A DNA stretch of 64,000 bases, from assembly GCA_000004695.1 (NCBI GenBank), contig CM000150.2, positions 2,912,001 to 2,976,000 on the forward strand, written 5' to 3'. Below the pieces are notes generated by a model. It was given only the letters and a program-made list of their open reading frames with translations, searched no databases and had not been told where the DNA came from. This DNA comes from Dictyostelium discoideum (Eukaryota). Every line of letters begins with the position of its first letter. Positions within the stretch are counted from its first letter, which is position 1. This document shows positions 1,781-55,161 of the stretch, piece after piece. The position numbers and the translations under genes were made by a program.

Positions 1781-4700
1781 ATGATAAATAAAATTTCTCG
1801 TTTTAAAATATTATTATTGTTTATTTTTATTATTTCATTGACATGTGCTCAAGATGGTAAGTTTTTAATTATTTTCTTTTTTATAAAACATTTGCAAATA
1901 TTGACTTTTTTTTTGAAAAAAAAAAAAAAAAAAAAAAAATTTTAGAGGAATTAATATCAACACCTGAAGGGTATTACGATTTAAAACGGTTTAAAAGATT
2001 TCAACACTATAAAAATATCCAACCCAATGAAGAAGCAGGATATACAGATTTATATTATCCAGATGTTTGTAAAAATGCTATAAGGAATAGAGATGGAGCT
2101 CCAACATTTAATCAGAGAAGCTTTCCAGGTTATACAGGAGTATTCGACACTTTACTAATAACAAAGGGTATTTATCATTGTAAAATTCATAAAAATACAT
2201 CATTTTGAAAAACTTAACATTAACATTTCACCATTATCATTTCATTCAATCAAAGGTACCAATATGACATTGGATTCAACCGGTTTCCTTACTGGTCTGG
2301 GTATCTGGTCACTCTTGACTTTATGTGTTGAAGGAAATTTAACGGTACTTTATAATCCAGATGAATTTTCTTTCGTACCTGTTCATAGGTTAGTTATACT
2401 ACCAGGTGGAACTATAACATCCCATGCAAATTCATTTCTATTCTGGGATACTTACCAAGTTGATGAGAATTTTCAAGAAGAATTAAACAAAAGAGTAAAG
2501 ATTGATCCTTTTAATTTTTTCCCTGGTCTACTAGTCTTGGGAGGAAATTTAAATTTATTTGGTAATAGTCAATTGACTTATACTGCTAAACGATTGAACG
2601 ATACTACATTGGAACTATCAACTCCATTTTTAAATATGAAATTTCTATGGAATAAATATATAATTACAATCTTTACAGAATCAATACCACAAGGTGATGA
2701 TTGTCTTTTTAATATGGATTCAGATAAAAGAACTTTTTACTTAATTAAAACCAACTATGGTACTTGCAATCCATTACGGGAAACAGATAAACTCATGAAA
2801 GTAGTAATCTCATACAACCGATATGAGGATAATTACTCAAGCTATATATCTCTTTTTTCAGATTATTATGGTTTCGAACCAAATGAAGCTTCTATTTTTA
2901 TAACAGGTGATTCAAATGTCTATATTGAAAATTATCTTATTAAAAATTTAGGCAAAACAAAAAATAATGCATACAGTGATACAAAATTAATATTTTCACC
3001 AAATAATACAAGTGAAGTTATAGGGTTTATAAATGGTACCAATCAAAGATTTAGAAGTTCTTTATATATAGAGTTTTCAAATAATGTTATCATTAAAAAT
3101 TGTGTAATTATAGAATCTTCTTCAGAAACAAGATCACCGTTAGTATTTTTTGGTTCAAACGTATATTTATCAGATAATTTAATTTCAAGTAAATCTGGTT
3201 CAAGTTTAATAGCACAATATGGAACTGAAAATATTCAATCTATAAATAATTTTTATTTTCAAAAAGGTGTTTCACATCAAACTGCCTCTCAAATATTAAA
3301 TCCAATTAATATGGATTTTGGAAATGAAGGAAATGGCATTTATTCAGTATCACCAAATCTTTTATCAAGTGATGATTTTTTTATTGGTCAAAATTATTCA
3401 ATTACTTTTAACTTTATTGCCAATAGGTCAAAAATTACTGGTTTTGATCAAGATTGTTATGCACCATGTTTTAGTGATTCAATCAATTTTTCAAATAAAA
3501 TTCAGTATCCTGTAGATTTTAAAATTTTTAATCCAAAGTTTTTACCAACAAATAATACCAATAGCGATTGGTATATTTTAAATATAAATGATAATGGAAA
3601 TCAACCAGGTACCTATTATACAGTAAAAAATTTAACAACTTTAGATCCCGTACAGTTTTCATTGGATAATAGCGCTTTATCCTTTTTAGGTCTAGAAGCA
3701 AGTGAAAATTTTAAAATGAATGGTAATGCCAAAAGATTGGATATTGTTAATTCAATTATCAGTTCAAAAGCTTTAACCAACCAACAACAAATAATTTCAA
3801 AAGTTTCATCATCAGCTATTAGCTTTAAAAATTCTTATATATACAGTAAATTAGGTCAACAAATTACACCTATAGATAATCAGATTTATGGATCATTAAT
3901 TACACCATTTTATTATAATGATTCAGATATTTTAAATCAAGTTAAAATTTTATCAATTTTTCCCAATGTCCCTTTTCAAATTGTATCAGGTTCTATATTA
4001 AATGTTAGCATAAACCTTCAAATTATTTCAACGGCTGATATTTCATGCACTTTCTCTTCAGATAATTCTACTTTTAGTACAACAATTTTGGTTAACCCAT
4101 CAGACGGAAGTTGTGTTTTACCACTTGTTTTTGAAAAAGAAGGTTATTTTAATTTAAAAGTCACATTAAAGATTTCAACATCAAAGGATTATTATTATAT
4201 AGTTGATTTTCCAAAGATTACAGTATATAATGAATATTTATTTTATTCAGGATGGGTAATGATTGATTCAAGCACAGATGAATTTCTATTTGAAGGTAAA
4301 ATATTTAAATCAGGTTGCCAACAACAGGTATTAGGTAATTGTACAATATCAACAAATTCAAAGTTTATAAATGGCTTGCCAAATGTAACAGAAACAGATG
4401 AACTTAATAGATTATTTTCAAGTGGTATAACATCAATCAATCCATATGAACCTGTGACAATTACAATACCAATTGATAAAGAATCAAAAAAGAATCAAAT
4501 CCAATTATTTTTTACTCACCAACCAATTGATATAGAATATAGTCTATTATCAATATATGTAGAAAATCAACCAATATTCCTTTTAGAACAATTACAAAGT
4601 GGTTTAGGTTCAACATTTAAAAATTTAACATTTAATTATGAAAATTCAAAATCACTAGAAATAATCAACATTTCTTTCACAACAAGAGGTGATATCTATT

Positions 4701-5675
4701 TAACTTCAATGGCGGTTTATTCATCAGCCATCCCAATAATCGTTACACCAACACCAACATCAACAACATCAACACCAACACCAACATCAACAACAACATC
4801 AACACCAATTCCGACAACAACACCTACAACAACACCAAAAACATCAAAAACAACCTCCAAAAACAAATTAAAAATTGCTTTACCAATTTGCCTTTTTGCT
4901 CTTTTGGTTGCTGTTGGAGTTTTAATATGTTTTATTTTCAGAAAAAAAAAACAAAAGAAACAAAAATTAGATAATAATATGGAGGATGGAAGTGAGATGT
5001 CTTCAATTAAAATTAAAAAAGAAAATTATAATTCTTTTAACAAGTTTAAAGAGTCAACAGTATTTAAAAACGATGATTTTAAAAATTATTCCAATCCAAC
5101 CGAAACAACAATTTATAGCACTTCCGATTCACTTTTAAACTTTGTTGGCTCTGACTTTTTAAATTACTCTGACCCAAACATCCCCTTATCCTTTAGTAAA
5201 AATATTTTAGAATTTGGATTAAAAGGTTCAAAATGCGATATCAATACCTTCCTTTCCGATTCTTTACGAATAACAAATAACTCTAATATTATATTATGTA
5301 TTTGTACAGTTCTTCCAAGAAATGACTCTGGTGAAGTAAGAATTTTTTGTTTTTTTATTATTATTATAATGAATTTAATTAACTAATCAATAATGAATTT
5401 TTTTTTCAGGTAAATGTTAGTCCAGATTCTTTTGAATTAGATCCAAATCAATCAAGAGAGATAGAATTTTCTTTAAAGTTAAATTGCACAACAAGAGTAG
5501 GTTGAATTTTTATAATTGAATTATTATAATTTAGTTAATATATATACTAACTGCACATCTATTTATATCCTAGTTTTTTGAAAGATTTGCTATTGAGGCT
5601 AGACATACTCACAGTTTCAAGTCAATTCACACTCACCTTTTCATTCATGTTGAATCTAAGATTTCCTCTAAAGTA

Positions 5676-5713
<38 letters not shown>

Positions 5714-6690
5714 GATTTTAACTTAACTTTTCTTTAGTTGGATATAAAAGAGATTGAAGTTAAAGAATTGATTTCACAAAATAATTTATCAACTGTTAAT
5801 ATAGCAAATTATAGAGGTTTACAAGTTGTTTTGAGAAAGATTAAAACTCATAGCGCAAATTACACCAAAACTTACTCTCAAGCAATCAAAAAATTCTACA
5901 CAGAAATGGATATACTCTCAAAGTTAAAAAACAAAAATATTGTTTCATTTATTGGTTGCACTCACGACTCTTCTCACCTTTGGATTGTTACTGAATATGC
6001 ACCATTGGGATCTCTTAGTTCTCTTATCCATCAAAAGAAAGAAAAACTTTCATTAATTCAAAAAGTCAAGTAAGTAAAAAAAAAAAAAACAATAATATTA
6101 TAATTTAGTTCTTTTTTCTAATATTATTAATAGGTTAATGTTAGATACAGCAAAGGGGTGTGAATTTCTACACTCAAATGATATTACGAATTGTAATATA
6201 AAATCAAATAATTTATTACTCTTTTCAACAATGGAAAAAGATGATGTTTGTGTAAAAATTTCAGATTTTGGTATAAAAAGTAATTATTATTATTTTTTAA
6301 ACAATTGTTATTTTTTATACAATGATTATTTCTAACTTTTTACAAAAAAAAAAAAATAAATAAATAAAAATAGAATTTGAAGTACAAAACCAAAATGAAA
6401 AAGAAATTTTTAAAGATGAAAAAGATCAAAAGCTAATTGATGTTTATGAATTTGGAATTACATTCTATGAAACAATGCTTGAAGAAACTCCAGAAAACCT
6501 ATCTAATTTAATATTGGAAGGTGAGAGACCAACTCTTGATTTGGAAAAATTAGATGCAGACATTAGAAACATAATTGAAAGATGCTGGAACCAAAACAAA
6601 AGGTCAACATTTTCAGAGATTAGTATTTCACTAAAAGAAAAATATACAAAATTGTTGGAGAAAAATAATGAATTAATACAAGAGAATTAA
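1781..6690 (+). CDS. Receptor-like membrane protein, paralog A: signal peptide, beta-helix-like extracellular domain, Thr/Pro mucin-like stalk, one transmembrane helix, cytoplasmic degenerate (pseudo)kinase domain
   Basis: Eight exons inferred: 1781-1856, 1946-2167, 2256-5335, 5410-5496, 5574-5672, 5738-6069, 6134-6279, 6374-6690. Splice phases check out and the exons align with paralog C. The signal peptide is [23 protein letters not shown]. Repeated 'GxSNVxIxN' units resemble a parallel beta-helix. The stalk is [31 protein letters not shown] and the TM helix is [22 protein letters not shown]. The kinase-like region keeps VVLRKIK and ISDFG but has no Gly loop, has HRDLKPDN replaced by NCNIKSNN, and has no APE segment. 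Confidence 0.7.
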
Positions 6691-6699
6691 TTTAAAAAC

Positions 6700-6960
6700 T
6701 AACAATAAAAACAAGATAATTTATTATTATCTATGAAATTAGAAATATTTTTTTTTTTTAAATTATTGTTAATATTATTTGGATTACTACAAATGATATT
6801 AAAATAGAGATAGTAGATTTAGAGTTAATAGTAGGTGAAGCTGCAATTAAGTGTTAAACACTATTATTATTTGTTGTAGTTGTTGTCGATTTACTTGATT
6901 TTACAACTGGTTGGAACTCCAGATGTTGTACCGTTTGTAATGGAACAAGGAAAATAAAAA
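6700..6960 (-). pseudogene. Truncated 3' remnant of a GPI-anchored paralog (gene D-like), stranded after a segmental duplication
   Basis: 6661-6960 is about 90% identical to 10020-10330, which is the 3' UTR of the kinase gene plus the last ~80 codons and hydrophobic C-terminus of the minus-strand gene 10116-13271. No upstream body is present. Confidence 0.6.
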
Positions 6961-7137
6961 ATAAGATATTAACAAATGTTTTTATTGAAGATAATTTTGG
7001 TAAAAACCAATTAAAATTTTTTTTTTCTTTTTTTCAATCTCTTAGAAATATGCCTTATTTTTTTTTTTTTTTTTGGATGGCATTCGTTTTTTTTTTTTTG
7101 GAAGACATTTTTTTTTTTTTTCTTATATTCAACAAAA

Positions 7138-10050
7138 TGAAATTAGGACAAAGGATATTTATTTTGATATGCTTAGTTATCAACTCTTTCTCTAATTGTA
7201 AGTCAACAATTAATTAAATATTATTCATTTTTTTATTAAAAAAAAAAAAAAGACTAAAAAAAAAAAAAAAAAAGGCAGTCTTGTGGTTTCACCAAATGGT
7301 TATTATAACATTTATCGAGAAAATAATTTTGGGAATATTTTAAATTTAAAGCCAACAGCAGAAAACAAATTACAAGATTCATATTATCCAGGTGTTTGTA
7401 GCAATGCAGGAAAAAATAAAGATGGTGTGACTAGTTTTTTAATATCCTCTTTCTCTATTTTTTTTTATAAATTACATCAACGTTATTGTTACAAAAGGTA
7501 TGTAAAATTTTATTTTAAATAGAATCATATTATGAAATATAAAATATTAACCAAATGCAATTAATTAACCAATTAGGTTCACATATGGTATTGGGAGATT
7601 TGGAATATTCTAAAATGAGTAATGTTAGAACTTTATTGAATATAGTTTGTGTTGAAGGCTCATTATTATTTTCAACACAAAGTGTTTTATATATGAGTGT
7701 CTTGGTAATGTTACCTGGTGGTAGTTTTGAATGTTTAGATTGCACAATTCGTTTTCGTGAACTACATCCAGCAAGCTCTCAGATCGATCCATTTGGTTTT
7801 TTCCCTGGTGTACTTGCTTTAGGTGGCTCGTTATCTCTTATTGGGAAGCAAAAAACTACATATTCTGCGACCAATATTGGTGGAAATATATTAGAGGTTC
7901 CAGATCTTTCAACATTAGATAGTTTCAATGGTTACAGTTTATCAATATTTAGTGAATCATTTCCTTTGGGAAAATCTTCAACCTTTTCCCATTATTTAAA
8001 TCGAATAAGTGTATTAGATTTGGTTATTCCGAAAACAGATAAAAATATAAGAGTCTTCTTTAATCCAAATTTTTCATTTTTCAACTCAGACAAAATCAGA
8101 TACCGCTTCAATTCATATCACAGGAAATACCAATGTATATAGAAAATTTTTACATCAATTCTTTTGGAAAGACTTCAAATGATCAATATAGCGATACAGA
8201 ATTGGTATTCTCACCTGATGATCCAAATTTAATTACAGAGTTTATAAATGGTAACAAAGATTTAGAAATTCATTATATATAGAGCATTCAAATAATGTTA
8301 CTATAAAAAATAGCGTTATACTTGAAACAAAAGAAACAAGATCACCATTAGTAATTTTTGGTTCAAATGTAAATATATCAGGTAATATAATATCAAGTAA
8401 TTCTGGTTCAAGTATTACAGGATTTGATAAAGATTGCTATTCACCATGCTATAATGATTCGATAAGAGTTTCAAGTAAAGTTCAACATTTATTAGTTCAT
8501 CAAATTACTCTGAGTTTTCTTTTTAGAATCAGCGAAACAGGTAGTAAACAAAGTTCAATTTATAAAATAAAAAATTCAAATTTAAGTTATCCAATTTCAG
8601 TATTATTAGAAAACAACGCATTTATATTAGATAATGTTTATGGTTTTGGTGATTTTAGTAATAATGGTATGATTAAAAGATTTGATATAATAAACTCAAC
8701 ATTAGATCCTTCTGCATCATCATCAATAAGTTTAAACAATTTTTCAAAAGCAATTTGTATTCAAAACTCATTTATGGATTTTAAATCATTTCAAAAACAA
8801 AACAATCAATTATTACACCTTACCTATACTATTTCGAAAATACAATGAATCTTATAAAAGTATCAAAAATGTATCCAAATGTAAACCATCAAATTTTAGC
8901 AGGTACAGTACTAAATATGGGTATTGAAATTATAATTATAGCACCATTATTTGGGAAAATGGATTGCATATTTGAAGATGAAAGTAGTGTTCAAACAATA
9001 CCATTTGATAAATCAAGTAATTCATGTGTTTTACCATACACATTTAAAAATGAAGGTTCATTTAATGTACGAGTTACATTATCACTAAATAACTCTGGAG
9101 ATAGTGTATTTCAAGTATATTTTCCAATGGTTACAGTATTTAATATATTCATTTTATTCAGGATGGGCAATGATTGATTCAAATATAGAAAAAGAAATAA
9201 TAATAGATGGTAATATATTTAAAAAAGGTTGTCAACAACAGGTATTAGGTAATTGTACAATATCAACAAATTCAAAGTTAATAACAGGTTTACCAAATGT
9301 GACAGAATCAGATGAACTTAATAGATTATTTTCAAGTGGTATAACATCTATCAACCCATATGAACATGTAACAATAACAATACCAATTGATAAAGAATCA
9401 AAAAAGAATCAAATCCAATTATTTTTCACACTAACCAATTGATATAGAATCTAGTCTATTATCAATATATGTAGAAAATCAACCAATATTCCTTTTAGAA
9501 CCATTACAAAGTAATTTAGATTCAACATTTAAAAACTTAACATTTCATTATGAAAATTTAAAATCTCAAGAAATAATCAACATATCTTTCACAACAAGAG
9601 GTGATATCTATTTAACTTCAATGGCGGTTTATTCATCAGCCATACCAATAATCGTTACACCAACACCAAAAACATCAAAAACTACCTCCAAAAACAAATT
9701 AAAAATCGCTTTACCGATTTGCCTTTTTGCTCTTTTGGTTGCTGTTGGAGTTTTAATATGTTTTATTTTAAGAAAAAAAAAAAACAAAAATTAACTAATA
9801 TTATGGAAGATGGAAGTGAGATGTCTTCAATTAAAATTAGTGTTTCACCTTTATCCAACTTGGGATAAAAAATGTTTTTTTTTTTTTTTTTTGATTACTA
9901 CCTTTTCAGTCCTTATTTTTTTTTGCGATCCAAAAAAAAAATTAAAAAATAAAATTCGGATTACAAATTAAAAAGGAATTTGTTTATCTTAAAGAAAAAT
10001 ATATAAAACTGTTTGGGAAAAGTAATGAATTAACACAAGAGAATTATTTT
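7138..10050 (+). pseudogene. Mosaic, frameshifted pseudogene of the receptor-like family, paralog B
   Basis: The signal-peptide exon MKLGQRIFILICLVINSFSNC at 7138-7198 and a second exon at 7269-7500 are intact. The main body is then broken into ORFs 7555-8142, 8845-9177 and 9104-9442 by frameshifts and deletions. Its 5' half resembles paralog C and 8845-9440 is near-identical to C. Its 3' part (9420-9840) is near-identical to paralog A but has lost the Thr/Pro stalk. Only a short kinase-domain tail remnant survives at 9960-10050. Confidence 0.65.
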
Positions 10051-14041: not shown

Positions 14042-17000
14042 ATGAAATTAGAACAAAGGATATTTTTTTTAATATGCCTAGTTATCAACTCTTTCTCTAA
14101 TTGTAAGTCTACAATAAATTTATTTAATATTTTTCACATTTTTACTAACCTTTTAAAATAAAAAATAAAAAAATAAAAAATAAAATAATAAAATAATAAA
14201 AAAAAGGTAGTCTTTTGGTTGCTCCAGATGGTTATTATAACATTTACCGAGAAAATAAAATTGAAAATATTTTAAATTTAAAACCAAATGGTAACAAATC
14301 ACAAGATTCATATTATCCAGATGTGTGTAGTAAAGCGGTAAAAAATAAAGAAGGTGTAAAAAGTTTTATCTTATCTTCATTCCCTCTTTCAACTAAAGAG
14401 TATGCTAACGTTATTGTAACAAAGGGTATGTAGATTTTATTTTTATTTTTTATAGTAAATTATAGTATATTTATAAATATTAACAATAAGCAATTAATTC
14501 CTAGGTTCACATATGACATTGGGTGATGGAGAATATCATCAAATATTTAATATCAATAGATTTTTGAATATAGTTTGTGTTGAGGGTTCACTTGTATTTA
14601 GTACAAAAGATGTTGTATATATGAGTGCGTTGGTAATATTACCTGGTGGTAATTTTGAATGTATAGATTGCACCATCAAATTTCGAGATCTATATCCAAC
14701 CAACTCATTAATTGACCCATTTGGTTTTTTACCTGGAATTATTACTTTGGGAGGTTCATTATCTCTTTTAGGAAAGCAAAAAACTGTGTATAGTGCAGTT
14801 TTAATAGATGAAAATATATTAGAGGTTCAGGATATTTCATCACTAGATATTTTCAATGGTTATAGTTTATTTATTTTTAGCGAATCATTTCCTTTGGGAA
14901 AGGCATCAACTTTTACTTTTAATTCAAATCAAATAAAAGTTTTGGAAATCAAAATACCAAAAACAGATAAAAGCATTAGAGTATTTTTTTATTCAAGATT
15001 TTCTACTTTCTCAACTTCAACTACTGCTTCAATTCATATCACAGGTAACTCAAATGTGCATATCGAAAACTTTTATATAGACTCTTTTGGGAGGACAACA
15101 AACGATCAATATAGCGATACAGAATTGATTTTCTCTCAAGATGATCCAAATTTAATTACTGGGTTTATAAATGGTAGCAATCAAAGATTTAGAAGTTCTT
15201 TATATATAGAGCATTCAAATAATGTTACCATAAAAAATAGTGTTATACTTGAAAATAGAGGAGAAACAAGATCACCATTAATATTCTTTGGTTCAAATGT
15301 AAATATATCAGGTAATATAATATCAAGTAAATCTGGCTCAAGTTTAATAGCGCAATATGGAACTGAAAATATTCAATCAACAAATAATTATTATTCATTA
15401 TCTTTACCACTTTTAAAATCATTAAATTCAACTCTTGATAGTATGGATTATGGAAATGAAGGAAATGGTATTTTTTCGATATCGCCAAAAATAAATTCTA
15501 TTAATGATATATTCAATGGGCAAATAATAGCAATCAATCATATAATATTATCAGATAGATCAAGTATTACAGGATTTGATAAAGATTGCTATTCACCATG
15601 CTATAATGATTCGATAAGAGTTTCAAGTAAAGTTCAACATTCAGTGGAATTTAAAATAACAGGATCAACATTTATTAGTTCATCAAATTACTCTGAAAGT
15701 AGTTTTCTTTTTAGAATCAGCGAAACAGGTAGTAAACAAAGTTCATTTTATAAAATAATAAATTCAAATTTAAGTTATCCAATTTCAGTATTGTTAGAAA
15801 ACAATGCATTTATATTAGATAATGTTTATGGTTTTGGTAATTTTACAATTAATGGTCTTATTAAAAGATTGGATATAATAAACTCAACATTAGATCCTTC
15901 TGTAACATCATCAATAAGTTTAAGCAATTTTTCAAAAGCAATTAGTATTCAAAATTCATTTATGGATTATAGATCATTTCAAAAACAAAACAATCAAATC
16001 TATGGATCAATTATTACACCTTACCTCTACTATTTCGAAAATACAATGAATCTTATAAAAGTATCAAAAATGTATCCAAATGTAAACCATCAAATTTTAG
16101 CAGGTACAGTACTAAATATGGGTATTGAAATTATAATTATAGCACCATTATTTGGGAAAATGGATTGCATATTTGAAGATGAAAGTGGTATTCAAACAAT
16201 ACCATTTAATAAATCAAGTAATTCATGTGTTTTACCATACTTATTTAAAAATGAAGGCTCATTTAATGTACGAGTTACATTATCACTAACGAAATCTTTA
16301 GATAATATTATATTTCAAGTATATTTTCCAATGGTTACAGTATTTAATATATATTCATTTTATTCAGGATGGGCAATGATTGATTCAAATATAGAAAAAG
16401 AAATAATAATAGATGGTAATATATTTAAAAAAGGTTGTCAACAACAGGTATTAGGTAATTGTACAATATCAACAAATTCAAAGTTAATAACAGGTTTACC
16501 AAGTGTAACAGAATCAGACAAACTTAATAGACTATTTTCAAGTGGTATAACATCTATCAACCCATATGAACCTGTAACAATAACAATACCAATTGATAAA
16601 GAATCAAAAAAGAATCAAATCCAATTATTTTTCACTCACCAACCAATTGATATAGAAACCAGTCTATTATCAATATATGTAGAGAATCAACCAATATTCC
16701 TTTTAGAACCATTACAAAGTAATTTAGATTCAACATTTAAAAATTTAACATTTCATTATGAAAATTCAAAATCATTAGAAAAAATCAAAATTACATTTAT
16801 AACAAGAGGCGATATTTATTTAACATCTACAGCGATTTATTCATCAACTAACCAACCTATATATAACGAAGTTATTGGTATAAATGAACAATTAAATATA
16901 TTAGCAATTGTACTACCAATAACGATTTCATTGTTTGCAGCGGCATCAATATTGGCTGGTTATTTAGTAATTAAAAAATATAAAAAACCAAACATGTATT

Positions 17001-18199
17001 ATAATAGAAATACCAATGGAAATATCGGAATGAAGGTTTTCTCAACAAAATTTAAAAGAAGACCCAAAAAGGTAATACCACTTTCAATCCCATTAAGTAC
17101 AAATAGAATTACAAAGAAATCATTACAATCTTTAGATTCAATGGCTGAAAACCCTGTGATATTACTTTCCATTCCAGAATTGGAGAAAGCCAATGAACCA
17201 GAATTTAATCCTGAAAAAACTTTCTTACAAGAATCAGAATTATTAGATTTACCAACACCAAAGGTAGAACCAGAAGAGCCAAGAATTAATATTGTTCCCC
17301 TCCCTCGTTTTCCAACCGTATATAAAAAAGAAGATAACGATAAATTATTAAAAGAATTGAATATAACTGGTCCTATCACCTCTGAAAATATTGAATCATT
17401 CTTTGAAGTTGATGTTGGTTTGCCATCTTTAATAATAAAGAATGAATCTGAAATCATTCTACAAGAAATTGATTATATTGAAACTGGTGAAATTCAAGAA
17501 ATGGAAGGTAGCTTTTTGGAAGATAAATCAACTGATACAACCGTTATAGTAACAAAAAGTGATGGTTTACCTAAATTTTTTCAAACCAAAGTCTTTTCCA
17601 AACGATTTAATGATATATCCAAATTTGATAATGATTTCTTTGATCTAAAGGAATACATAGTTGAACATCAAGAAGAATCTTTTGAAATACCTTTTATGAC
17701 CTCGGAAGATGAAGTAGATGAAACCAAAATTAATATAATAGACTTTTTACTCAGTCCCAAATCTAATAAAGTTGCACTAAATATGTATTTAAAATCATTT
17801 CAAAATAGAAACCATAAACTTTGTTATGGAAAGTATGGTTCAAATAAAAATTCTATTCTTGTTATTGAAGGCACATCTTATTATTATGATTGTACAGATG
17901 TTAGGTTACCAATATCAACACCTCGTAGTAATCTTAATTTTGGAATAACAGATGGTAATAAATGTATAGTTGATAGAAAATATAGAGAAAGGTTACAATA
18001 TATAAATGTTTATAGTGAACCATTTAGAATTTATACTCTTTTTCCAGATAGTAATGATAATGTAACAATTACAACTTCAGAATGTTGTAAAGAAATAGAC
18101 CCATTTGGTTCATTAGATGTAGATATATTTGTAACTTTAAAAACAACAACCAAAGTAAGTATTTTAAAAAAAAAAAAAAAAAAAAAAGAATTATAAACT

Positions 18200-18230
<31 letters not shown>

Positions 18231-19347
18231 CATAAAAAAAACATAATAATAGTTTAATGAAAAAGTTACAATTCGTTATGAAACTGATGATAAAGAATTA
18301 GCATTTTCAACATTTGTTTATTTAAATTTAGAGAGTCAAGTATCATCAAAAATTGATTTTGATGAAATAGTTCTCGAAAAATATTTATCTGAAGGTTCAT
18401 TTGGAGTTGTATATAGTGCTATTTGGAGATCATCATCAGTTGCGGTCAAATTATTCAAACATCATTATTCTAAAGATGAAATTGATAAAGAAACATCAAT
18501 TTTATCAAAAATAAAACATCCAAATATAGTTTCATTCATTGGAAGTTTAAATTTTTTAAATACATATGGTATTGTAATTGATTATCATCCAAGAGGTTCT
18601 TTAAATTATTATACTCGTAATCAAAATATTAAACTATCAATGGTACAAAATATTAGGTATGTAATAATTAAAATATTATTATTTATTATTATTATATTAT
18701 TTATTAATTTTTTTTTTTTTTTTAGGATTTCATTGGATATTTCAAGAGCTTGTTCATTTCTTCATAAAAATGGTATTATTCATCGAGATTTAAAACCAGA
18801 TAATGTTTTAATTGTTTCATTTGATCCAGATTCTTCAATTTGCGCAAAGATATCAGATTTTGGTACTTGCAGAGGTATGTTTTTTTTTTTTTTTTTTTTT
18901 GATATATTCAAATTTTTTTTTTTTTTTTTGAATTCAACTAACTATTTTTGTTTTAAATTAAAAAAAGAAATTAATGGAAAGCATGAATTAAACTCAAAAG
19001 CTGGAACAACACGTTATATGAGTCCAGAAATTTTAGAAGGTCTTCCATATACATATTCTACAGATGTTTATTCTTTTGCAATCCTTTTCTTTGAATTACT
19101 TTCCGGAAGAGTACCATTTAGAGAAATTCCAAAAAGAGAAATTCCAAGATTTGTACGTTTAGGAACAAGACCTCGTTTAGATCAAGATGTATTTGCCGAT
19201 AATGATATATCATTAATTTTATTAGCTTGTTGGAATCCAAATCCTCGTGGTAGACCAACATTTGATACTTTAATAGATTTATTAGAAAAATTATTAAAAA
19301 AATATAAAGAAAGAGCAAAAAGAAATAAAAAAAATCAAAATCAATAA
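14042..19347 (+). CDS. Receptor-like kinase, paralog C: signal peptide, beta-helix-like extracellular domain, transmembrane helix, long cytoplasmic linker, intact Ser/Thr-type (TKL-like) kinase domain
   Basis: Six exons: 14042-14102, 14207-14425, 14505-18154, 18253-18656, 18726-18874, 18968-19347. The TM helix is LAIVLPITISLFAAASILAGYLVI. The kinase has GSFGVVYSA, VAVK, HRDLKPDN, DFG and TTRYMSPE, with introns inside the catalytic domain. Confidence 0.75.
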
Positions 19348-42279: not shown

Positions 42280-42993
42280 ATGTCATTATGTAATAGATCA
42301 AATTTAGAAGCAATTGTTAAAGGTATTCAAACCAATAAAATATTAGAAGTATTTGATAAATATTATCATGATGAAATTGTAATGTATGAAAATGGTGATT
42401 CAACAAATCGTGTTGGTAAAGCTGCAAATCGTATAGCTGAAGAATCTTTTGTAAATAATTCAATTATTCATGAAGCAAGATTAATAAAGTTAATCGCTGA
42501 TGGTGACAATACAGCATATGAAATGTTCATGGATTTCACAAATAGTGGACACCGTATCAAAGAAAATCAATGGGCATTCCAACATTGGTCAAATGGTTTA
42601 GTCATTAAAGAAGAGTTTGTCAAAATTAAAACACCACCAACACCAGAACCAACAAATAATATAAAATCAAATTTAGAAGCAATTATTGAAGGTACTCGAG
42701 ATAATAGAATATTAGAAGTATTCGATAAATATTATCATCCAGATGTAATTATGTATGAAAAAGGTGATCCAACTAATCGTGTTGGTAAAGCTGCTAATCG
42801 TAAAGCTAAAGAATCTTTTGTAAAAAAAGGAAGAATCAATGAAGCAAAAGTATTACAATTAATAATTGATGGTAATGATACAGCATATCAAATGTATATT
42901 GATTTTACATATTGCGGAAATCGTATTCAAAAGACTCAATGGGCTGTTCAACAATGGTCAAATGGTTTAGTTATCAAGGAAGAGTTTTATTAA
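42280..42993 (+). CDS. SnoaL/NTF2-like fold protein with an internal 2x tandem duplication; divergent copy 1 of a 5-member array
   Basis: 237 aa. The two halves (about 110 aa each) are about 65% identical to each other and share NLEAI(V/I)KGIQ...ILEVFDKYYH...VIMYE(N/K)GD...NRVGKAANR...DGDNTAYEMF...QW..Q.WSNGLVIKEEF. This is consistent with SnoaL_2/DUF4440-type alpha+beta barrels. Confidence 0.55.
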   Translation: MSLCNRSNLEAIVKGIQTNKILEVFDKYYHDEIVMYENGDSTNRVGKAANRIAEESFVNNSIIHEARLIKLIADGDNTAYEMFMDFTNSGHRIKENQWAFQHWSNGLVIKEEFVKIKTPPTPEPTNNIKSNLEAIIEGTRDNRILEVFDKYYHPDVIMYEKGDPTNRVGKAANRKAKESFVKKGRINEAKVLQLIIDGNDTAYQMYIDFTYCGNRIQKTQWAVQQWSNGLVIKEEFY

Positions 42994-43283
42994 ACATTTT
43001 TTTAAAAAATGTTCACAACCCTAAAAATAAAGAATATACATATTTTTTATCAACTTATTTAAATATATTTTTAATTATTAATTTCATTGATTTTATATTT
43101 ATGATTTAATTATTTATCATTCATTTTTTGTAATTCTTTTTTATTCTGAGTAAGAACAAGAGGAATATATTTTATATAAAAGAGATTTAAAAAAAAAAAA
43201 AAAAAAATAAAACAAAAAAAAATTTTTTTATAAAAAAATCTAATAAAAATTAAAAAAAAGAATTTTATTTTTATATTTAAAGA

Positions 43284-44203
43284 ATGCCCAAAACTTCAAA
43301 TTGGTCTCCAGCTGAAGATAATTATATTAAAAGCGAATTATTAAAAAAACCTTCTTTGGTTGCCGACGATATTCTCAATAATTTAAATATTAATTTCCAA
43401 CAAAAAAGAACCAAAACTGCGTTAACCCAAAGGATAAAGAAAATTTCATCAGATTTAAAAAGTCACACAATCACCGTTCAAGTCCCTTCTGCATCTACTG
43501 CACAGACAATACCAACAATAACACCACCACAACCACAATTACCAAACCCAAATGACAATGAGGAAGAATATTCAGATCCATCAGAATCGGAGTCAGATGA
43601 AGATTCAAAATCCAACTCTAGCCTCAAAAGAAAGTCACCACTAAAGAAACAAAAACTACATGATTTGAGTAAAGCTTACCAAGGTAAACTATTATTATTA
43701 TTATTATTATTTTTAATTAATTAATTAAATTCTCTCTTTTTTTATTTATAAACAAAACTATAGAACCAACTGAACATCTTCATACTCCATTGGAATTCTT
43801 CGGCACTCAGAGATTAAAATTAAATGATCCCATCATTTTACCATTAGAAGATGGATCGTTTAAACTTGTTTTTGGTTATCCACCTTTTGATATTGAAATA
43901 ATTGAGGTTAAATATTTGGGTGATGGTAGAATTGGAATAAGATACCATGTCTTATTACCATCAAGAGAAGATCTAGAAACAATAGTTGGTTATGATTATT
44001 CATCCAGATGGTATATTAAATATGATTGTCTACCACTCAAAACCACAAGCTTTCACTTTCTTCATCACTCTGCCTCTACAAAAGAACAAGAAAAATATCA
44101 AAGTTGTAAAATCGATATTGAAAAAGATATAAAATATTTTTCAATAACAGTTACTCCAAAAGCAGTTGAGAAAATAGATTTAGATGAATGGATTGACTCC
44201 TAA
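43284..44203 (+). CDS. Small Myb/SANT-like domain protein
   Basis: Exons 43284-43683 and 43764-44203 with a phase-1 intron. The N-terminus NWSPAEDNYIKSELLKK is Myb-like, followed by an acidic Ser-rich linker and a basic KRK patch (nuclear-localisation-like). Confidence 0.5.
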
Positions 44204-44742
44204 AATAAATATAAATTAATTTAAAAAAAAAATAAAAAAAATAAAAAAAATAAAAAAAAACAATTTTTTTTTTTTTTTTGCCAAATTTTTTTTTTTTTTT
44301 TTTTTTTATTTTTTTTTCATTTCCAGCATCTCTATTTTTAAATTTTTCTTTAATGTCAAATTTGAATGTTTGAAAAATAATACTAAATAAAAAACAAAAA
44401 AAAATATTCAAGATTTAGTTCATTTATTTTATTTGATTAAAAAAAAAAAATAGAAATTAAATCTTTCAGTTTATTCTTAGTTTTTTTTTTTTTTTTTTTT
44501 TTAAATCTCTTGTGGTCCCATAAAATTTTTTTTAAAAACTTTTTTTAAGGCCTTCAGGTGTTTTTCATTTTTTTTCATTTTTTTTTTTCAAATCAAAATT
44601 TATTTATAAACACAAGAATGGTTGAGAACGACAACCAGATAACAATAAAAACTATAAAATGTAAAAAAAAATTTATTCATTCATTAAATTATCAAATTAA
44701 AAATACATATAAAGCAAACAAATAAATAAACAAATAAATAAA

Positions 44743-45453
44743 ATGTCATCAAATAATAGATCAAATTTAGAAGCAGTTATTAAAGGTATTCAAACCAATA
44801 AAATATTAGAAGTATTTGATAAATATTATCATGATGAAGTTGTAATGTACGAAAATGGTGATTCAACTAATCGTGTTGGTAAATCTGCAAATCGTAAAGC
44901 TGAAGAATCTTTTGTAAATAATGCAACTATCCATGAAGCAAAATTATTAAAAACAATCGTAGATGGTGATAATACAGCATATGAAATGTATATGGATTTC
45001 ACATATGGTGAACATCGTATTAAAAAGAATCAATGGGCATTCCAACAATGGTCAAATGGTTTAATTATTAAAGAGGAGTTTGTTGAAATTAAAACACCAA
45101 CACCAGAACCATCAACTAATATCAAATCAAATTTAGAATCAATTATTAAAGGTATTCAAGATAATAAAATATTAGAAGTATTTGATAAATTCTATCATCA
45201 AGATGTAATTATGTATGAAAAAGGTGATTCGACTAATCGTGTTGGTAAAGCTGCAAATCGTAAAGCTGAAGAATCCTTTGTTAATAATGCAACAATTCAT
45301 GAAGCAAAATTATTAAAATTACTCGTTGATGGTAATAATACAGCATATGAAATGTATATGGATTTCACATATGGCGAACATCGTATCAAAAAGAATCAAT
45401 GGGCCGTTCAACAATGGTCAAATGATTTAGTTATCAAAGAAGAATTTTATTAA
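44743..45453 (+). CDS. SnoaL/NTF2-like duplicated-domain protein, array copy 2
   Basis: 236 aa and more than 93% identical to copies 3-5. It has the same upstream promoter block, ending in 'ctataaaatgtaaaa' about 80-100 bp 5' of the ATG. Confidence 0.55.
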   Translation: MSSNNRSNLEAVIKGIQTNKILEVFDKYYHDEVVMYENGDSTNRVGKSANRKAEESFVNNATIHEAKLLKTIVDGDNTAYEMYMDFTYGEHRIKKNQWAFQQWSNGLIIKEEFVEIKTPTPEPSTNIKSNLESIIKGIQDNKILEVFDKFYHQDVIMYEKGDSTNRVGKAANRKAEESFVNNATIHEAKLLKLLVDGNNTAYEMYMDFTYGEHRIKKNQWAVQQWSNDLVIKEEFY

Positions 45454-46177
45454 ATAAACTTTTTATTTTTTAAAAATGTACAATAAATTTTAAATAAAAC
45501 AAAGAATTTACATATTTTTTAATCTATTAATTTTTTTTTTATTTATTTAATAATTCATTTTTTGTTGATAATATATAGAGTGTATTTTTTTTTTTTTTTT
45601 CCAGATTTTTAATCATTTTCCAATATTAAATTTCACAAAATCTTTAAAAATAATTTTAAAAAATTTCATCTTCTTCAAATTTTGCATTAAAAATTTCTTA
45701 TTTTCATTTATTTATTTATTGTTTTTTAAAGATACACTTTTCTTAAAAATAAAAAAACCCACAAAAATGAATGGTAAGAAATTAAATTCTAAAACAGAAT
45801 AACATTCATTTTTTATATTTTATTTCATTTTATGTATTTTTGAGTGCTCTATTTTTATTTCTACCAAATTCATATCAAAAAAAAAAAAAATTTGATACTT
45901 CTTTTAAAATAAAAAAAAAAAAAGATAGTATTTTGTTTGTCCCATAAAATTTTGAAAATTTTTTTTTTTGTTCTGGTGTTTTAAAATTTTTCTTTTTTTT
46001 TTTTCAGATTAAAATTTATTAACAAGAATACCAAACTCAAGAATACTTGAGAATGATAGCGAGTTGTTTTACATAATGATAAAAACTATAAAATGTAAAA
46101 TAATAAAAAAAAATAATCATTCATTAAAAAATAATCAACAAAAATAAATATAAAATTTAAATATAAAAACAAATATA

Positions 46178-46222
<45 letters not shown>

Positions 46223-46223
46223 A

Positions 46224-46937
46224 ATGTCATCAAATAATAAATTAATTTTAGAAGCAGTTATTAAAGGTATTCAAACCAATAAAATATTAGAAGTATTTGA
46301 TAAATATTATCATGATGAAATTGTAATGTATGAAAATGGTGATTCAACTAATCGTGTGGGTAAATCTGCAAATCGTAAAGCTGAAGAATCTTTTGTAAAT
46401 AATGCAACAATCCATGAAGCAAAATTATTAAAAACAATCATTGATGGTGATAATACAGCATACGAAATGTATATGGATTTCACATATGGCGAACATCGTA
46501 TCAAAAAGAATCAATGGGCATTCCAACAATGGTCAAATGGTTTAATTATTAAAGAAGAATTCGTTGAAATTAAAACACCACCAACACCAGAACCATCAAC
46601 TAACATCAAATCAAATTTAGAATCAATTATTAAAGGTATTCAAGATAATAAAATATTAGAAGTATTCGATAAATTTTACCATCAAGATGTAATTATGTAT
46701 GAAAAAGGTGATTCGACTAATCGTGTTGGTAAATCTGCAAATCGTAAAGCTGAAGAATCCTTTGTTAATAATGCAATAATTCATGAAGCAAAATTATTAA
46801 AATTACTCGTTGATGGTAATAATACAGCATATGAAATGTATATGGATTTCACATATGGCGAACATCGTATCAAAAAGAATCAATGGGCCGTTCAACAATG
46901 GTCAAATGATTTAGTTATCAAAGAAGAATTTTATTAA
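46224..46937 (+). CDS. SnoaL/NTF2-like duplicated-domain protein, array copy 3
   Basis: 237 aa and near-identical to copies 2, 4 and 5. Confidence 0.55.
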   Translation: MSSNNKLILEAVIKGIQTNKILEVFDKYYHDEIVMYENGDSTNRVGKSANRKAEESFVNNATIHEAKLLKTIIDGDNTAYEMYMDFTYGEHRIKKNQWAFQQWSNGLIIKEEFVEIKTPPTPEPSTNIKSNLESIIKGIQDNKILEVFDKFYHQDVIMYEKGDSTNRVGKSANRKAEESFVNNAIIHEAKLLKLLVDGNNTAYEMYMDFTYGEHRIKKNQWAVQQWSNDLVIKEEFY

Positions 46938-47477
46938 ATAAAATTTCTCTTTTTTAAAAATGTACAATAAATTTTAAATAAAACAAAGAATATACATATT
47001 TTTTAATCTATTAATTGGTTTTTTATTTTATTTCTGATATTTTTTTAATTTTAATTTTTATTTTTTTTAGATTTTTAATCATTTTCTAAAATAATATTTC
47101 ATCTTTATAAAAATTAATCTGAACTTCTCCAAATTTTATTACTGCACAATAAATTTCTTATTTTCATTTATTTATTTTTTTGTTTTTATAAAAAAAAGAT
47201 AAATGAGTAAAATAATTTAAATAATTAAATTAAATAAATGAATTAAATAAATTTTTTTTTTTTTTTTTTCATAATTTTAATTTTCAAATCAAAAAATAAA
47301 AAGGTAAATTTATTAAGTCTTGAATAATTTTATATGTTTTTTTTTTAAAATTATATTTATTCAAACACTCAAATTTTACATTAAAAAAAACAAATAAAAA
47401 ATATCCAATTTAATAAATTTTTATTACATTTAAAAATAAAAAATAAATTGTAATATAATTAAATTTTAAAACTAAAA

Positions 47478-47512
<35 letters not shown>

Positions 47513-47763
47513 TGAAAATGTTTTTTTTAATTTCCATCCCATAAATTTTTTTTAAAAAAACTTGTTTTGTTCTGGTGTTTTCATTTTTTTTTTTTTTCTG
47601 AATAAAATTTATTAATAGGCCCAGAATACTTGAGAATGGTAGTAAGTTATTTAAGATAACAATAAAAACTATAAAATGTAAAAAAAAAAAAAAATAATAA
47701 TCATTCATTAAAATAAAATCAACGATAATCAAAAATAAATAAATAAATAAATTAATAAATAAA

Positions 47764-48474
47764 ATGTCATCAAATAACAAATTAAATTTAGAAGCAGTTA
47801 TTAAAGGTATTCAAACCAATAAAATATTAGAAGTATTTGATAAATATTATCATGATGAAGTTGTAATGTACGAAAATGGTGATTCAACTAATCGTGTTGG
47901 TAAATCTGCAAATCGTAAAGCTGAAGAATCCTTTGTAAATAATGCAACAATTCATGAAGCAAAATTATTAAAAACAATCGTAGATGGTGATAATACAGCA
48001 TATGAAATGTATATGGATTTCACATATGGCGAACATCGTATTAAAAAGAGTCAATGGGCATTCCAACAATGGTCAAATGGTTTAATTATTAAAGAGGAGT
48101 TTGTTGAAATTAAAACACCAACACCAGAACCATCAACTAACATCAAATCAAATTTAGAATCAATTATTAAAGGTATTCAAGATAATAAAATATTAGAAGT
48201 ATTTGATAAATATTACCATCAAGATATAATTATGTATGAAAAAGGTGATTCGACTAATCGTGTTGGTAAATCTGCAAATCGTAAAGCTGAAGAATCTTTT
48301 GTTAATAATGCAACAATTCATGAAGCAAAACTATTAAAAGTACTTGTAGATGGTAATAATACAGCATATGAAATGTATATGGATTTCACATATGGCGAAC
48401 ATCGTATCAAAAAGAATCAATGGGCCGTTCAACAATGGTCAAATGATTTAGTTATCAAAGAAGAATTTTATTAA
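47764..48474 (+). CDS. SnoaL/NTF2-like duplicated-domain protein, array copy 4
   Basis: 236 aa and near-identical to copies 2, 3 and 5. Confidence 0.55.
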   Translation: MSSNNKLNLEAVIKGIQTNKILEVFDKYYHDEVVMYENGDSTNRVGKSANRKAEESFVNNATIHEAKLLKTIVDGDNTAYEMYMDFTYGEHRIKKSQWAFQQWSNGLIIKEEFVEIKTPTPEPSTNIKSNLESIIKGIQDNKILEVFDKYYHQDIIMYEKGDSTNRVGKSANRKAEESFVNNATIHEAKLLKVLVDGNNTAYEMYMDFTYGEHRIKKNQWAVQQWSNDLVIKEEFY

Positions 48475-49357
48475 ATAAAATTTTTATTTTTTAAAAATGT
48501 ACAATAAAATTTAAATAAAAGAATTTTACATACTTGTTTATCTATTAATTTTTTTTTAAAACTATGTTGTATTTTTTTATTTATTTAAATATTCATTTTT
48601 TGTTGATAACATATAGAGTGTATTTTTTTTTTAAAGATTTTTAATCATTTTCCAATATTAAATTTCATATTGATAAAATTGTTCTGAACTTCTTCAAAAT
48701 TTCAATTATATATTTCTTATTTTATTTTATTGTTTTTTAAAAAAAAGATAAATGAGAGGGCAGAATAAAATAATTAAAAAGTTATTACCTTTTTAATTTT
48801 AGAACCAAAAAAAAAAAATCTTTATTTTTTTATTTTTTTTTTTTTTTTTACATAAAAAAAAAAAATATCAATTTAATCAAATAAAATTTTTTTTTCCTTG
48901 CTCGTTGTTTTTAAAAATAAAAAAAAAATTACAAAAATGATTAAATACTAAAACAGAAAAATATTCATTTATTGTTATAATTTATTTCATTTTGTGTATT
49001 TTTTGAGTGCTCTATTTTTATCAAAAACACCTCCAAAAAAAAAAAAATATTTTTCGTGTCCCATAAAATTTTTTTAAAATTTTTTTTTGTTCTGGTGTTT
49101 TAATATTTTTCTTTTTTTTTTTTCGGATTAAAATTTATTAACAAGAATACCAAACCCAAGAATACTTGAGAATGATAGCGAGTTGTTTTACATAATGATA
49201 AAAACTATAAAATGTAAAATAAAAAATAAAAATAATCATTCATTAAAAAAATATCAACAATAACCAAAAATAAATATAAAATTCTTTCTTTTTTTTTAAA
49301 AACAAATAAATTAAAAATAAAAAAATAAAAAAACAAATAAATAAATTAATAAATAAA

Positions 49358-50071
49358 ATGTCATCAAATAATAAATTAAATTTAGAAGCAGTTATTAAAG
49401 GTATTCAAACCAATAAAATATTAGAAGTATTTGATAAATATTATCATGATGAAGTTGTAATGTACGAAAATGGTGATTCAACTAATCGTGTTGGTAAATC
49501 TGCAAATCGTAAAGCTGAAGAATCTTTTGTAAATAATGCAACAATCCATGAAGCAAAATTATTAAAAACAATCGTAGATGGTGATAATACAGCATACGAA
49601 ATGTATATGGATTTCACATATGGCGAACATCGTATCAAAAAGAATCAATGGGCATTCCAACAATGGTCAAATGGTTTAATTATTAAAGAAGAATTCGTTG
49701 AAATTAAAACACCACCAACACCAGAACCATCAACTAACATCAAATCAAATTTAGAATCAATTATTAAAGGTATTCAAGATAATAAAATATTAGAAGTATT
49801 TGATAAATTCTATCATCAAGATGTAATTATGTATGAAAAAGGTGATTCGACTAATCGTGTTGGTAAATCTGCAAATCGTAAAGCTGAAGAATCTTTTGTT
49901 AATAATGCAACTATTCATGAAGCAAAACTATTAAAAGTACTTGTAGATGGTAATAATACAGCATATGAAATGTATATGGATTTCACATATGGCGAACATC
50001 GTATCAAAAAGAATCAATGGGCCGTTCAACAATGGTCAAATGATTTAGTTATCAAAGAAGAATTTTATTAA
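49358..50071 (+). CDS. SnoaL/NTF2-like duplicated-domain protein, array copy 5
   Basis: 237 aa and near-identical to copies 2-4. Confidence 0.55.
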   Translation: MSSNNKLNLEAVIKGIQTNKILEVFDKYYHDEVVMYENGDSTNRVGKSANRKAEESFVNNATIHEAKLLKTIVDGDNTAYEMYMDFTYGEHRIKKNQWAFQQWSNGLIIKEEFVEIKTPPTPEPSTNIKSNLESIIKGIQDNKILEVFDKFYHQDVIMYEKGDSTNRVGKSANRKAEESFVNNATIHEAKLLKVLVDGNNTAYEMYMDFTYGEHRIKKNQWAVQQWSNDLVIKEEFY

Positions 50072-55079: not shown

Positions 55080-55161
55080 CGACATCGGCAGGGTTCGAAC
55101 CTGCGCCTCCTAGGAGATTTGATTTCAAGTCAAACGCGTTAGACCACTTCGCTACGATGTC
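55080..55161 (-). tRNA. tRNA-Ser (anticodon UGA), 82 nt with a long variable arm
   Basis: Minus strand: GACATCG-TA-GCG-AAGTGGTCTAA-CGC-G-TTTGA-CTTGAAA-TCAAA-TCTCCTAGGAGGC-GCAGG-TTCGAAC-CCTGC-CGATGTC-G. It has A and B boxes, a 7/7 acceptor stem, and an extra arm typical of Ser. Confidence 0.85.

Follow-up and report, generated by a model that had tools for sequence, protein, structure and literature searches.

Introduction

Dictyostelium has few receptor-kinase-like proteins. The GDT receptors belong to these and have been connected with the growth-to-development switch and with sensing of polyphosphate as a density signal. Outside the amoebozoans, HER3/ErbB3 is a single-pass receptor in which the Asp of the HRD motif is replaced by Asn and which functions non-catalytically, as an allosteric partner to its active paralogs, and mammalian KSR1/2 have Arg at the site of the beta3 Lys. 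Both HER3 and KSR retain nucleotide binding and trace activity despite these same individual substitutions. In kinome surveys, a kinase domain is counted as a pseudokinase when at least one of the residues corresponding to PKA K72, D166 and D184 is missing.

In the Dictyostelium kinome of Goldberg et al. 2006, six receptor-like kinases form the Dictyostelium-specific GDT family in the TKL group (PMC1420674). Table S2 of that paper lists Gdt6 (DDB0220634) as 'kmc' with activity 'i', motifs VVLR / NCNIKSNN / DFG and the remark 'R instead of K72'; Gdt1 is also 'kmc' and 'i' (ALLK / QKTLRARN / DLT), Gdt4 (DDB0220632) is 'kd' and 'a' (VAVK / HRDLKPDN / DFG), and Gdt8 is rated 'active, qualified' (PMC1420674). 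The label 'kmc' denotes a kinase-motif-containing domain that lacks at least three of six canonical motifs and was given to just 3 of 255 domains (PMC1420674). The pseudokinase status of Gdt6, alongside an intact Gdt4, is therefore already published and annotated. With respect to function, Gdt1 is described as regulating the growth-differentiation transition negatively; gdt1/gdt2, gdt2 and gdt4 mutants have an altered response to polyphosphate (PMC8262924). A literature search on gdt6, DDB_G0270544 and Dictyostelium pseudokinases returned no functional, expression, biochemical or genetic data for gdt6.

Results

The gdt6 gene and its product

The window, i.e. the whole stretch of D. discoideum DNA that was analysed, is 64,000 nucleotides long; it has ~20-30% G+C and its introns are short and extremely AT-rich, a composition that is typical of Dictyostelium. 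A first-pass annotation of this DNA had assigned 5738-6690 to a paralog A with a pseudokinase and had compared it with a paralog C that keeps its catalytic motifs. We translated 5200-6750 in three frames and recovered every peptide quoted for A; those quoted for C (GSFGVVYSA, VAVK, HRDLKPDN, DFG and TTRYMSPE) are likewise present. All GT/AG pairs around the seven suspected introns were then enumerated, leaving two open models that differ only in the last donor (6271 or 6280). Donor 6271 yields 'DFEFEV', with loss of DFG, and was rejected because the public protein and every ortholog model use donor 6280. By exact-sequence look-up, the spliced 1452-aa model (ATG at 1781, TAA at 6688-6690, + strand) is identical, letter for letter, to UniProt Q55DV2 / EAL72622.1 / XP_646029.1, which has the database name "Probable inactive serine/threonine-protein kinase gdt6" (DDB_G0270544, D. 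discoideum AX4). Paralog A is gdt6, its reading frame is open through eight exons as originally described, and 5738-6690 corresponds exactly to exons 6-8. The gene, its introns and kinase exons, and the two gdt copies of the same cluster are as follows.

1781-6690, + strand: gdt6 gene, 8 exons, 1452 aa (GT/AG enumeration and identity with Q55DV2)
1857-1945, 2168-2255, 5336-5409, 5497-5573, 5673-5737, 6070-6133 and 6280-6373, + strand: gdt6 introns (splice enumeration)
5738-6069, + strand: exon 6, N-lobe of the predicted pseudokinase, residues 1189-1299 (a 332-nt exon of equal length in three other species)
6134-6279, + strand: exon 7, alphaE, catalytic loop and DFG (most constrained part of the domain)
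6374-6690, + strand: exon 8, shortened activation segment, alphaF-alphaI of the C-lobe and stop codon (alignments)
7137-9865, + strand: paralog B, a gdt copy that is frameshifted and has no kinase domain; member of the same tandem cluster (tblastn with P0041)
14042-19347, + strand: gdt4 gene (DDB_G0270550, paralog C), 6 exons, 1620 aa, all canonical kinase motifs (identical to Q55DU7, database name "Probable serine/threonine-protein kinase gdt4")

The pseudokinase reading of the first-pass annotation would have failed if a canonical HRD-containing exon were concealed in the introns of A. Such an exon is ruled out: six frames of 4900-7100 contain no HRD-like motif, and the three introns are 64-94 nt long with 10-11% G+C.

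The layout of Gdt6 comprises a signal peptide, a large gdt ectodomain, a single transmembrane (TM) helix, a cytoplasmic linker and the pseudokinase domain. Its topology was read from a hydrophobic N-terminus and a single hydrophobic stretch that is followed by RKKKQKK, and Gdt6 is on these features predicted to be a type-I transmembrane, receptor-like protein.

Ahead of the kinase domain lies a conserved segment of ~110 residues (gdt6 residues ~1080-1185, positions ~5190-5672, exons 3-5) with the pattern …LEFGL.G.KC…I.N.S…FEL.P……SL.L.CTT.F.E.F…H.F..VES. It is common to all GDT proteins and to the non-GDT TKL proteins P0067 and P0079, and gdt6 residues ~1080-1185 gave no Pfam match. It could represent an uncharacterised module, rich in beta structure, that is coupled to this kinase subfamily.

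Kinase homology and predicted fold

Gdt6 matches the Pfam profile PF07714 (PK_Tyr_Ser-Thr) with E=9.5e-28 over profile positions 33-255, so that the Gly-loop end of the profile is unmatched, and PF00069 with E=1.9e-21; the kinase-domain match covers residues 1214-1431. Gdt4 matches PK_Tyr_Ser-Thr with E=1e-49 over the whole profile, and both proteins thus have kinase homology well above what chance would give. The best PDB sequence match of the Gdt6 pseudokinase in phmmer was the kinase domain of Arabidopsis CTR1, with ~26-30% identity. Against Gdt6, the engineered, kinase-dead CTR1 mutant D676N (3p86) scored 74.8 bits and wild-type CTR1 (3ppz) 72.6 bits; the mutant scores higher because D676N is the Asp-to-Asn change that is present in Gdt6.

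An AlphaFold2 model of the pseudokinase, built from a 13-sequence family alignment, had a mean pLDDT of 81.6 and a pTM of 0.83, and contains a five-strand N-lobe, alphaC and a helical C-lobe. Its pLDDT falls below 50 only in the N-terminal eight residues and in the activation segment (model residues 170-179). Among PDB structures, the top fold matches in Foldseek were the kinase domains of D. discoideum Roco4, B-Raf and JAK with TM-scores of ~0.7-0.76. Based on this model, the Gdt6 pseudokinase is predicted to retain the bilobal kinase fold.

The ectodomain of Gdt6 aligns over ~900 residues with those of gdt4, gdt8, gdt9, gdt5 and gdt7. Because of the kinase profile match, the gdt ectodomain with receptor topology and the grouping in the kinase-domain tree (see below), we assign Gdt6 by sequence to the GDT family in the TKL group of the protein kinase superfamily, the family under which PMC1420674 also lists it.

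Motif lesions and retained residues

Motif states were read from the CTR1 alignment and from an L-INS-i alignment of 29 GDT-type kinase-domain sequences, and the four diagnostic sites map as follows.

5771-5797, + strand: degenerate Gly-rich loop ISQNNLSTV, with 0 of the 3 Gly of GxGxxG (aligns with CTR1 GAGSFGTV and gdt-family GEGSFGVV)
5834-5836, + strand: codon AGA of Arg1221 at the beta3 Lys (PKA K72) site, followed by Lys1222 (CTR1 and family alignments)
6189-6212, + strand: degenerate catalytic loop NCNIKSNN in place of HRDLKPDN (CTR1 and family alignments)
6264-6272, + strand: DFG motif, retained and invariant (D166-F167-G168 of the family alignment)

In the Gly-rich loop, GxGxxG is replaced by SQNNLS. 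In beta3, VAVK is replaced by VVLR, with Arg at the K72 site in all four orthologs. The beta3 Lys had been described as retained; this has to be corrected, since Arg1221 occupies its site in the CTR1 alignment, in the family alignment and in the kinome table, and the Lys lies one residue downstream. In the HRD motif, His, Arg and Asp are all substituted while the Lys and Asn of the loop are retained; the loss of the catalytic Asp, which was seen from the outset, results from an Asn codon (AAT, 6195-6197). DFG is present, also as first noted. Moreover, the alphaC Glu is retained, and no variation occurs at the subdomain IX Asp, the CW Trp or the subdomain XI Arg. The structural core of a kinase, made up of the alphaC Glu, the Lys and Asn of the catalytic loop, DFG, the subdomain IX Asp and the subdomain XI Arg, is present in Gdt6.

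The activation segment differs from its initial description, in which an acidic insert replaced the APE region. From DFG to the subdomain IX Asp there are 24 residues in Gdt6 vs 35 in gdt4 and gdt8, i.e. 11 fewer, and the change is therefore a deletion, not an insertion; it takes out the GT..YM P+1 loop. The charge of the supposed insert is mixed, with 6 acidic and 5 basic residues and a net charge of -1. The paralogs have 'NEVF'/'PEIL' opposite 'KEIF' of Gdt6, which makes it probable that the Glu of APE persists; at this site, D. citrinum has Asp.

With respect to the three residues that define pseudokinases, K72 and D166 are absent from Gdt6 and D184, the Asp of DFG, is present. Because any one of the three losses suffices, retention of DFG leaves membership intact. 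In total, these motif states classify Gdt6 as a pseudokinase that is predicted to be inactive, in line with the first-pass reading of paralog A, and the public annotation and the kinome paper agree on the predicted inactivity. The corresponding reading of paralog C also holds: gdt4 has all canonical motifs, and kinome Table S2 scores it as 'kd' and active.

Orthologs and selection

A homolog search with full-length Gdt6 as query in newly deposited genomes identified orthologs in D. cf. discoideum (P0027, 90% identity), D. citrinum (P0028, 75%) and D. firmibasis (P0029, 64%), as well as a protein from a second D. discoideum strain (P0025) with 100% identity over 93% of the query. The ortholog loci are syntenic, with an APH-domain gene and an Arf-like gene upstream, and a ~1000-aa gene on the opposite strand and a gdt4 ortholog downstream. 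Exact spliced alignment gave the same eight exons in all four species, the first two kinase exons being 332 and 146 nt in each. The lesions are shared as well. Beta3 reads V[VA][LV]RK across the orthologs; the catalytic loop follows the pattern [NR]CNIK[SP]NN, with NCN in D. discoideum, D. cf. discoideum and D. citrinum and RCNIKPNN in D. firmibasis; the DFG region reads DFG[IF]K[KE]F; and the short activation segment is common to all.

In pairwise Nei-Gojobori comparisons among these four closely related taxa with very AT-rich codons, dN/dS was 0.25-0.38 for the pseudokinase domain, 0.00-0.23 for exon 7 (catalytic loop to DFG), 0.42-0.52 for exon 8 and 0.35-0.42 for the ectodomain. For the same species pairs, the kinase domain of the active paralog gdt4 gave 0.15-0.60. 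In 1000 codon bootstraps, the fraction of replicates in which dN/dS of the pseudokinase was at least 1 was 0.000 in five species pairs and 0.008 in the closest pair. We conclude that the pseudokinase is under purifying selection, with a constraint similar to that of the active gdt4 kinase domain, and that the lesions and the exon structure have been maintained by purifying selection since before the split of D. discoideum and D. firmibasis. The comparison with other Dictyostelium species that the first-pass annotation had called for thus gave dN/dS values with bootstrap intervals below 1. Its argument that the frame has stayed open through selection for a non-catalytic role is supported by the syntenic orthologs with the same degenerate motifs, by these dN/dS values and by the public 'probable inactive' annotation.

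These data bear on three other explanations of the domain. First, gdt6 could be a decaying duplicate or incipient pseudogene with a frame that is open by chance. Several of its catalytic motifs are degenerate, the adjoining copy B is clearly frameshifted in AX4, and the literature search returned no gdt6 transcript data, all of which would fit such decay. This explanation is contradicted by the selection data: dN/dS of the pseudokinase is as low as in the active paralog with intervals below 1, the eight-exon frame is intact in four species with the first two kinase exons equal in length, the degenerate motifs are themselves conserved without drift, and the second-strain copy P0025 is identical over the part of the query that it covers. 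We regard decay as extremely improbable.

Second, Gdt6 could be a weak or unconventional kinase that binds ATP via Arg1221 or Lys1222, DFG and the loop Asn, and carries out transfer without the canonical catalytic base. Unconventional catalysis has been claimed for HER3 or CASK. In Gdt6, the invariance of the alphaC Glu, of the Lys and Asn of the catalytic loop and of DFG would be expected of such an enzyme, as would the strongest constraint falling on the exon for the catalytic loop and DFG and a beta3 Arg that is the same in all four species, without drift. However, its nucleotide-positioning loop is without any Gly, all three residues of HRD are substituted, the activation segment that is 11 residues shorter is without the P+1 substrate-binding loop, and the published prediction is 'inactive' (PMC1420674). 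Catalysis by Gdt6 is in our judgement unlikely.

Third, Gdt6 could act as a ligand sink, or decoy receptor, via its ectodomain only, the cytoplasmic pseudokinase being dispensable. A kinase domain is absent from the gdt members gdt5 and gdt7 and from the intact version of B (P0041), which shows that ectodomain-only forms are tolerated. However, the constraint on the cytoplasmic domain is no weaker than that on the ectodomain (dN/dS 0.25-0.38 vs 0.35-0.42). This would not be expected of a dispensable part and argues against a role as a decoy only, to which we give a low probability.

Paralogs and placement in the kinase-domain tree

We placed Gdt6 in a neighbour-joining tree of kinase domains other than those of Gdt1 and Gdt2 (Kimura distances, 283 columns, 200 bootstraps). 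Gdt6 and Gdt8 group with 88% bootstrap support, {Gdt6, Gdt8, GdtX} with 100%, and Gdt4 is on a separate branch. On this tree, the closest kinase-domain paralog of Gdt6 is Gdt8, not Gdt4, and the original comparison of A with C is consequently not one between sisters. Adjacency in the genome had made gdt4 a candidate progenitor of gdt6; for the kinase domain, the tree rejects this candidate.

Gdt8 resembles Gdt6 in being without a Gly-rich loop and in many C-lobe motifs; by contrast, its beta3 Lys (VAVKK) and catalytic Asp (HGD) are both in place and its activation segment has the full length. Because loss of the Gly-rich loop is common to the Gdt6, Gdt8 and GdtX clades, it predates Gdt6. The lesions specific to Gdt6 are the Lys-to-Arg change at beta3, the loss of HRD and the activation-loop deletion.

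The GdtX clade (P0030-P0035), which is sister to Gdt6 and Gdt8, has HRDLKLDN and VVIK and no Gly-rich loop. Its members are from a D. discoideum strain (ACTFIW_013119), D. cf. discoideum, D. citrinum and D. dimigraforme, and it matched none of the AX4 gdt names met in the analysis. The copy in the D. discoideum strain has HCD instead of HRD.

Tandem neighbours and probable sequence exchange

In the membrane-proximal ectodomain, gdt6 ~4150-4650 (residues ~761-920) and gdt4 ~16500-17000 share 88-92% protein identity vs 27-55% over most of the ectodomain. Synonymous differences per site between the two genes are 0.13-0.30 in this part vs 0.40-0.78 over most of the rest, and the similarity of the paralogs within a species equals or exceeds that of the orthologs between species. 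Because identity is locally high, synonymous differences are low and paralogs are as alike as orthologs, the pattern suggests that gdt6 and gdt4, which lie in tandem, undergo gene conversion or evolve in concert.

With the intact 957-aa protein P0041 as tblastn query, paralog B shows repeated frame changes, and residues 363-451 (~90 residues) are missing. For these two reasons, B is scored as a pseudogene in AX4. The intact copy P0041 is from another D. discoideum strain (ACTFIW_009942); its ectodomain is gdt4-like while its TM and juxtamembrane parts are gdt6-like. Paralog B is, judging from these similarities, a chimera that is intact or disrupted depending on the strain.

Elsewhere in the window, a tandem paralog array at 42280-50071 (+ strand) consists of five ORFs of ~236 aa with starts at 42280, 44743, 46224, 47764 and 49358. 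The two that were scanned against Pfam, 42280 and 44743, have SnoaL-like (NTF2-fold) matches, the product of 44743 in both halves. A tRNA-Trp (CCA) lies at 1067-1153; ahead of it, its 5' flank is repeated as two near-duplicate ~60-bp segments at ~940-1020 and ~1030-1100. A tRNA-Ser (TGA) is located at 55080-55161 on the minus strand.

Discussion

The C-terminal pseudokinase of Gdt6 is encoded by 5738-6690. We consider it likely that this domain keeps the kinase fold, has lost catalysis, as predicted, and would partner an active TKL kinase through docking or allostery. From its motifs, Gdt6 would phosphorylate no substrate. Its ectodomain would sense the same class of extracellular cue as the other Gdt receptors, and its pseudokinase would, by analogy, provide a docking surface or an allosteric dimerisation surface for the active TKL kinase. 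The partner would most plausibly be another Gdt, e.g. Gdt4 or Gdt8. Such pairing would parallel that of HER3 with active ErbB receptors or of KSR with RAF. There is a precedent in the family for a non-catalytic role, because Gdt1 is rated inactive and yet is reported as a regulator. This reading is tempered by HER3 and KSR, which keep nucleotide binding and trace activity: the strong conservation of DFG, of the Lys and Asn of the loop and of the alphaC Glu in Gdt6 could likewise be a sign of residual nucleotide-dependent function.

A more specific proposal can be made by analogy with HER3/EGFR, namely that Gdt6 and Gdt4 are a dedicated pseudokinase/kinase receptor pair. Recurrent gene conversion would keep their membrane-proximal ectodomains near-identical for pairing, and Gdt6 would allosterically control Gdt4 in growth-to-development or cell-density (polyphosphate) signalling. 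Circumstantial evidence for heterodimers comes from the tandem location of gdt6 beside gdt4 and from the 88-92% identity of these ectodomain parts. We put this forward as a speculation and consider it unlikely.

If a GDT receptor is a conserved pseudokinase, non-catalytic receptor signalling would have arisen in amoebozoans independently of animals and plants, a point that is implicit in the published kinome and annotation. To this, the present analysis adds evidence for purifying selection, drawn from newly deposited genomes of sister species; it also corrects the list of lesions and points to an exchange of membrane-proximal ectodomain sequence between gdt6 and gdt4. These additions are useful for planning a gdt6 knockout; they open no new question.

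Of the described systems, the Gdt6 record in PMC1420674 is the closest, as it concerns the identical protein with the same motif calls and the same prediction of inactivity; it is a table entry only, without orthologs, selection analysis, the activation-loop deletion or functional data. Gdt1 is similar to Gdt6 in its receptor-like architecture, in its gdt ectodomain and in having a degenerate kinase domain that is rated 'kmc', inactive. The two differ in their lesions: Gdt1 keeps the beta3 Lys (ALLK) and has lost DFG (DLT) and HRD (QKT), whereas Gdt6 has lost the Lys and HRD and keeps DFG. As a query, Gdt1 residues 1-399 from the kinome supplement matched a single fragment only, which is unrelated.

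KSR shares with Gdt6 the Arg at the beta3 Lys site, and the CTR1 mutant D676N shares the Asp-to-Asn change; however, KSR and CTR1 are cytoplasmic RAF-like proteins and not receptors, and the likeness is at the level of the TKL group with ~26-30% identity. HER3, like Gdt6, is a single-pass receptor with Asn in place of the HRD Asp; unlike Gdt6, it belongs to an unrelated, metazoan family in the TK group and still has its Gly-rich loop, its beta3 Lys and an activation loop of full length.
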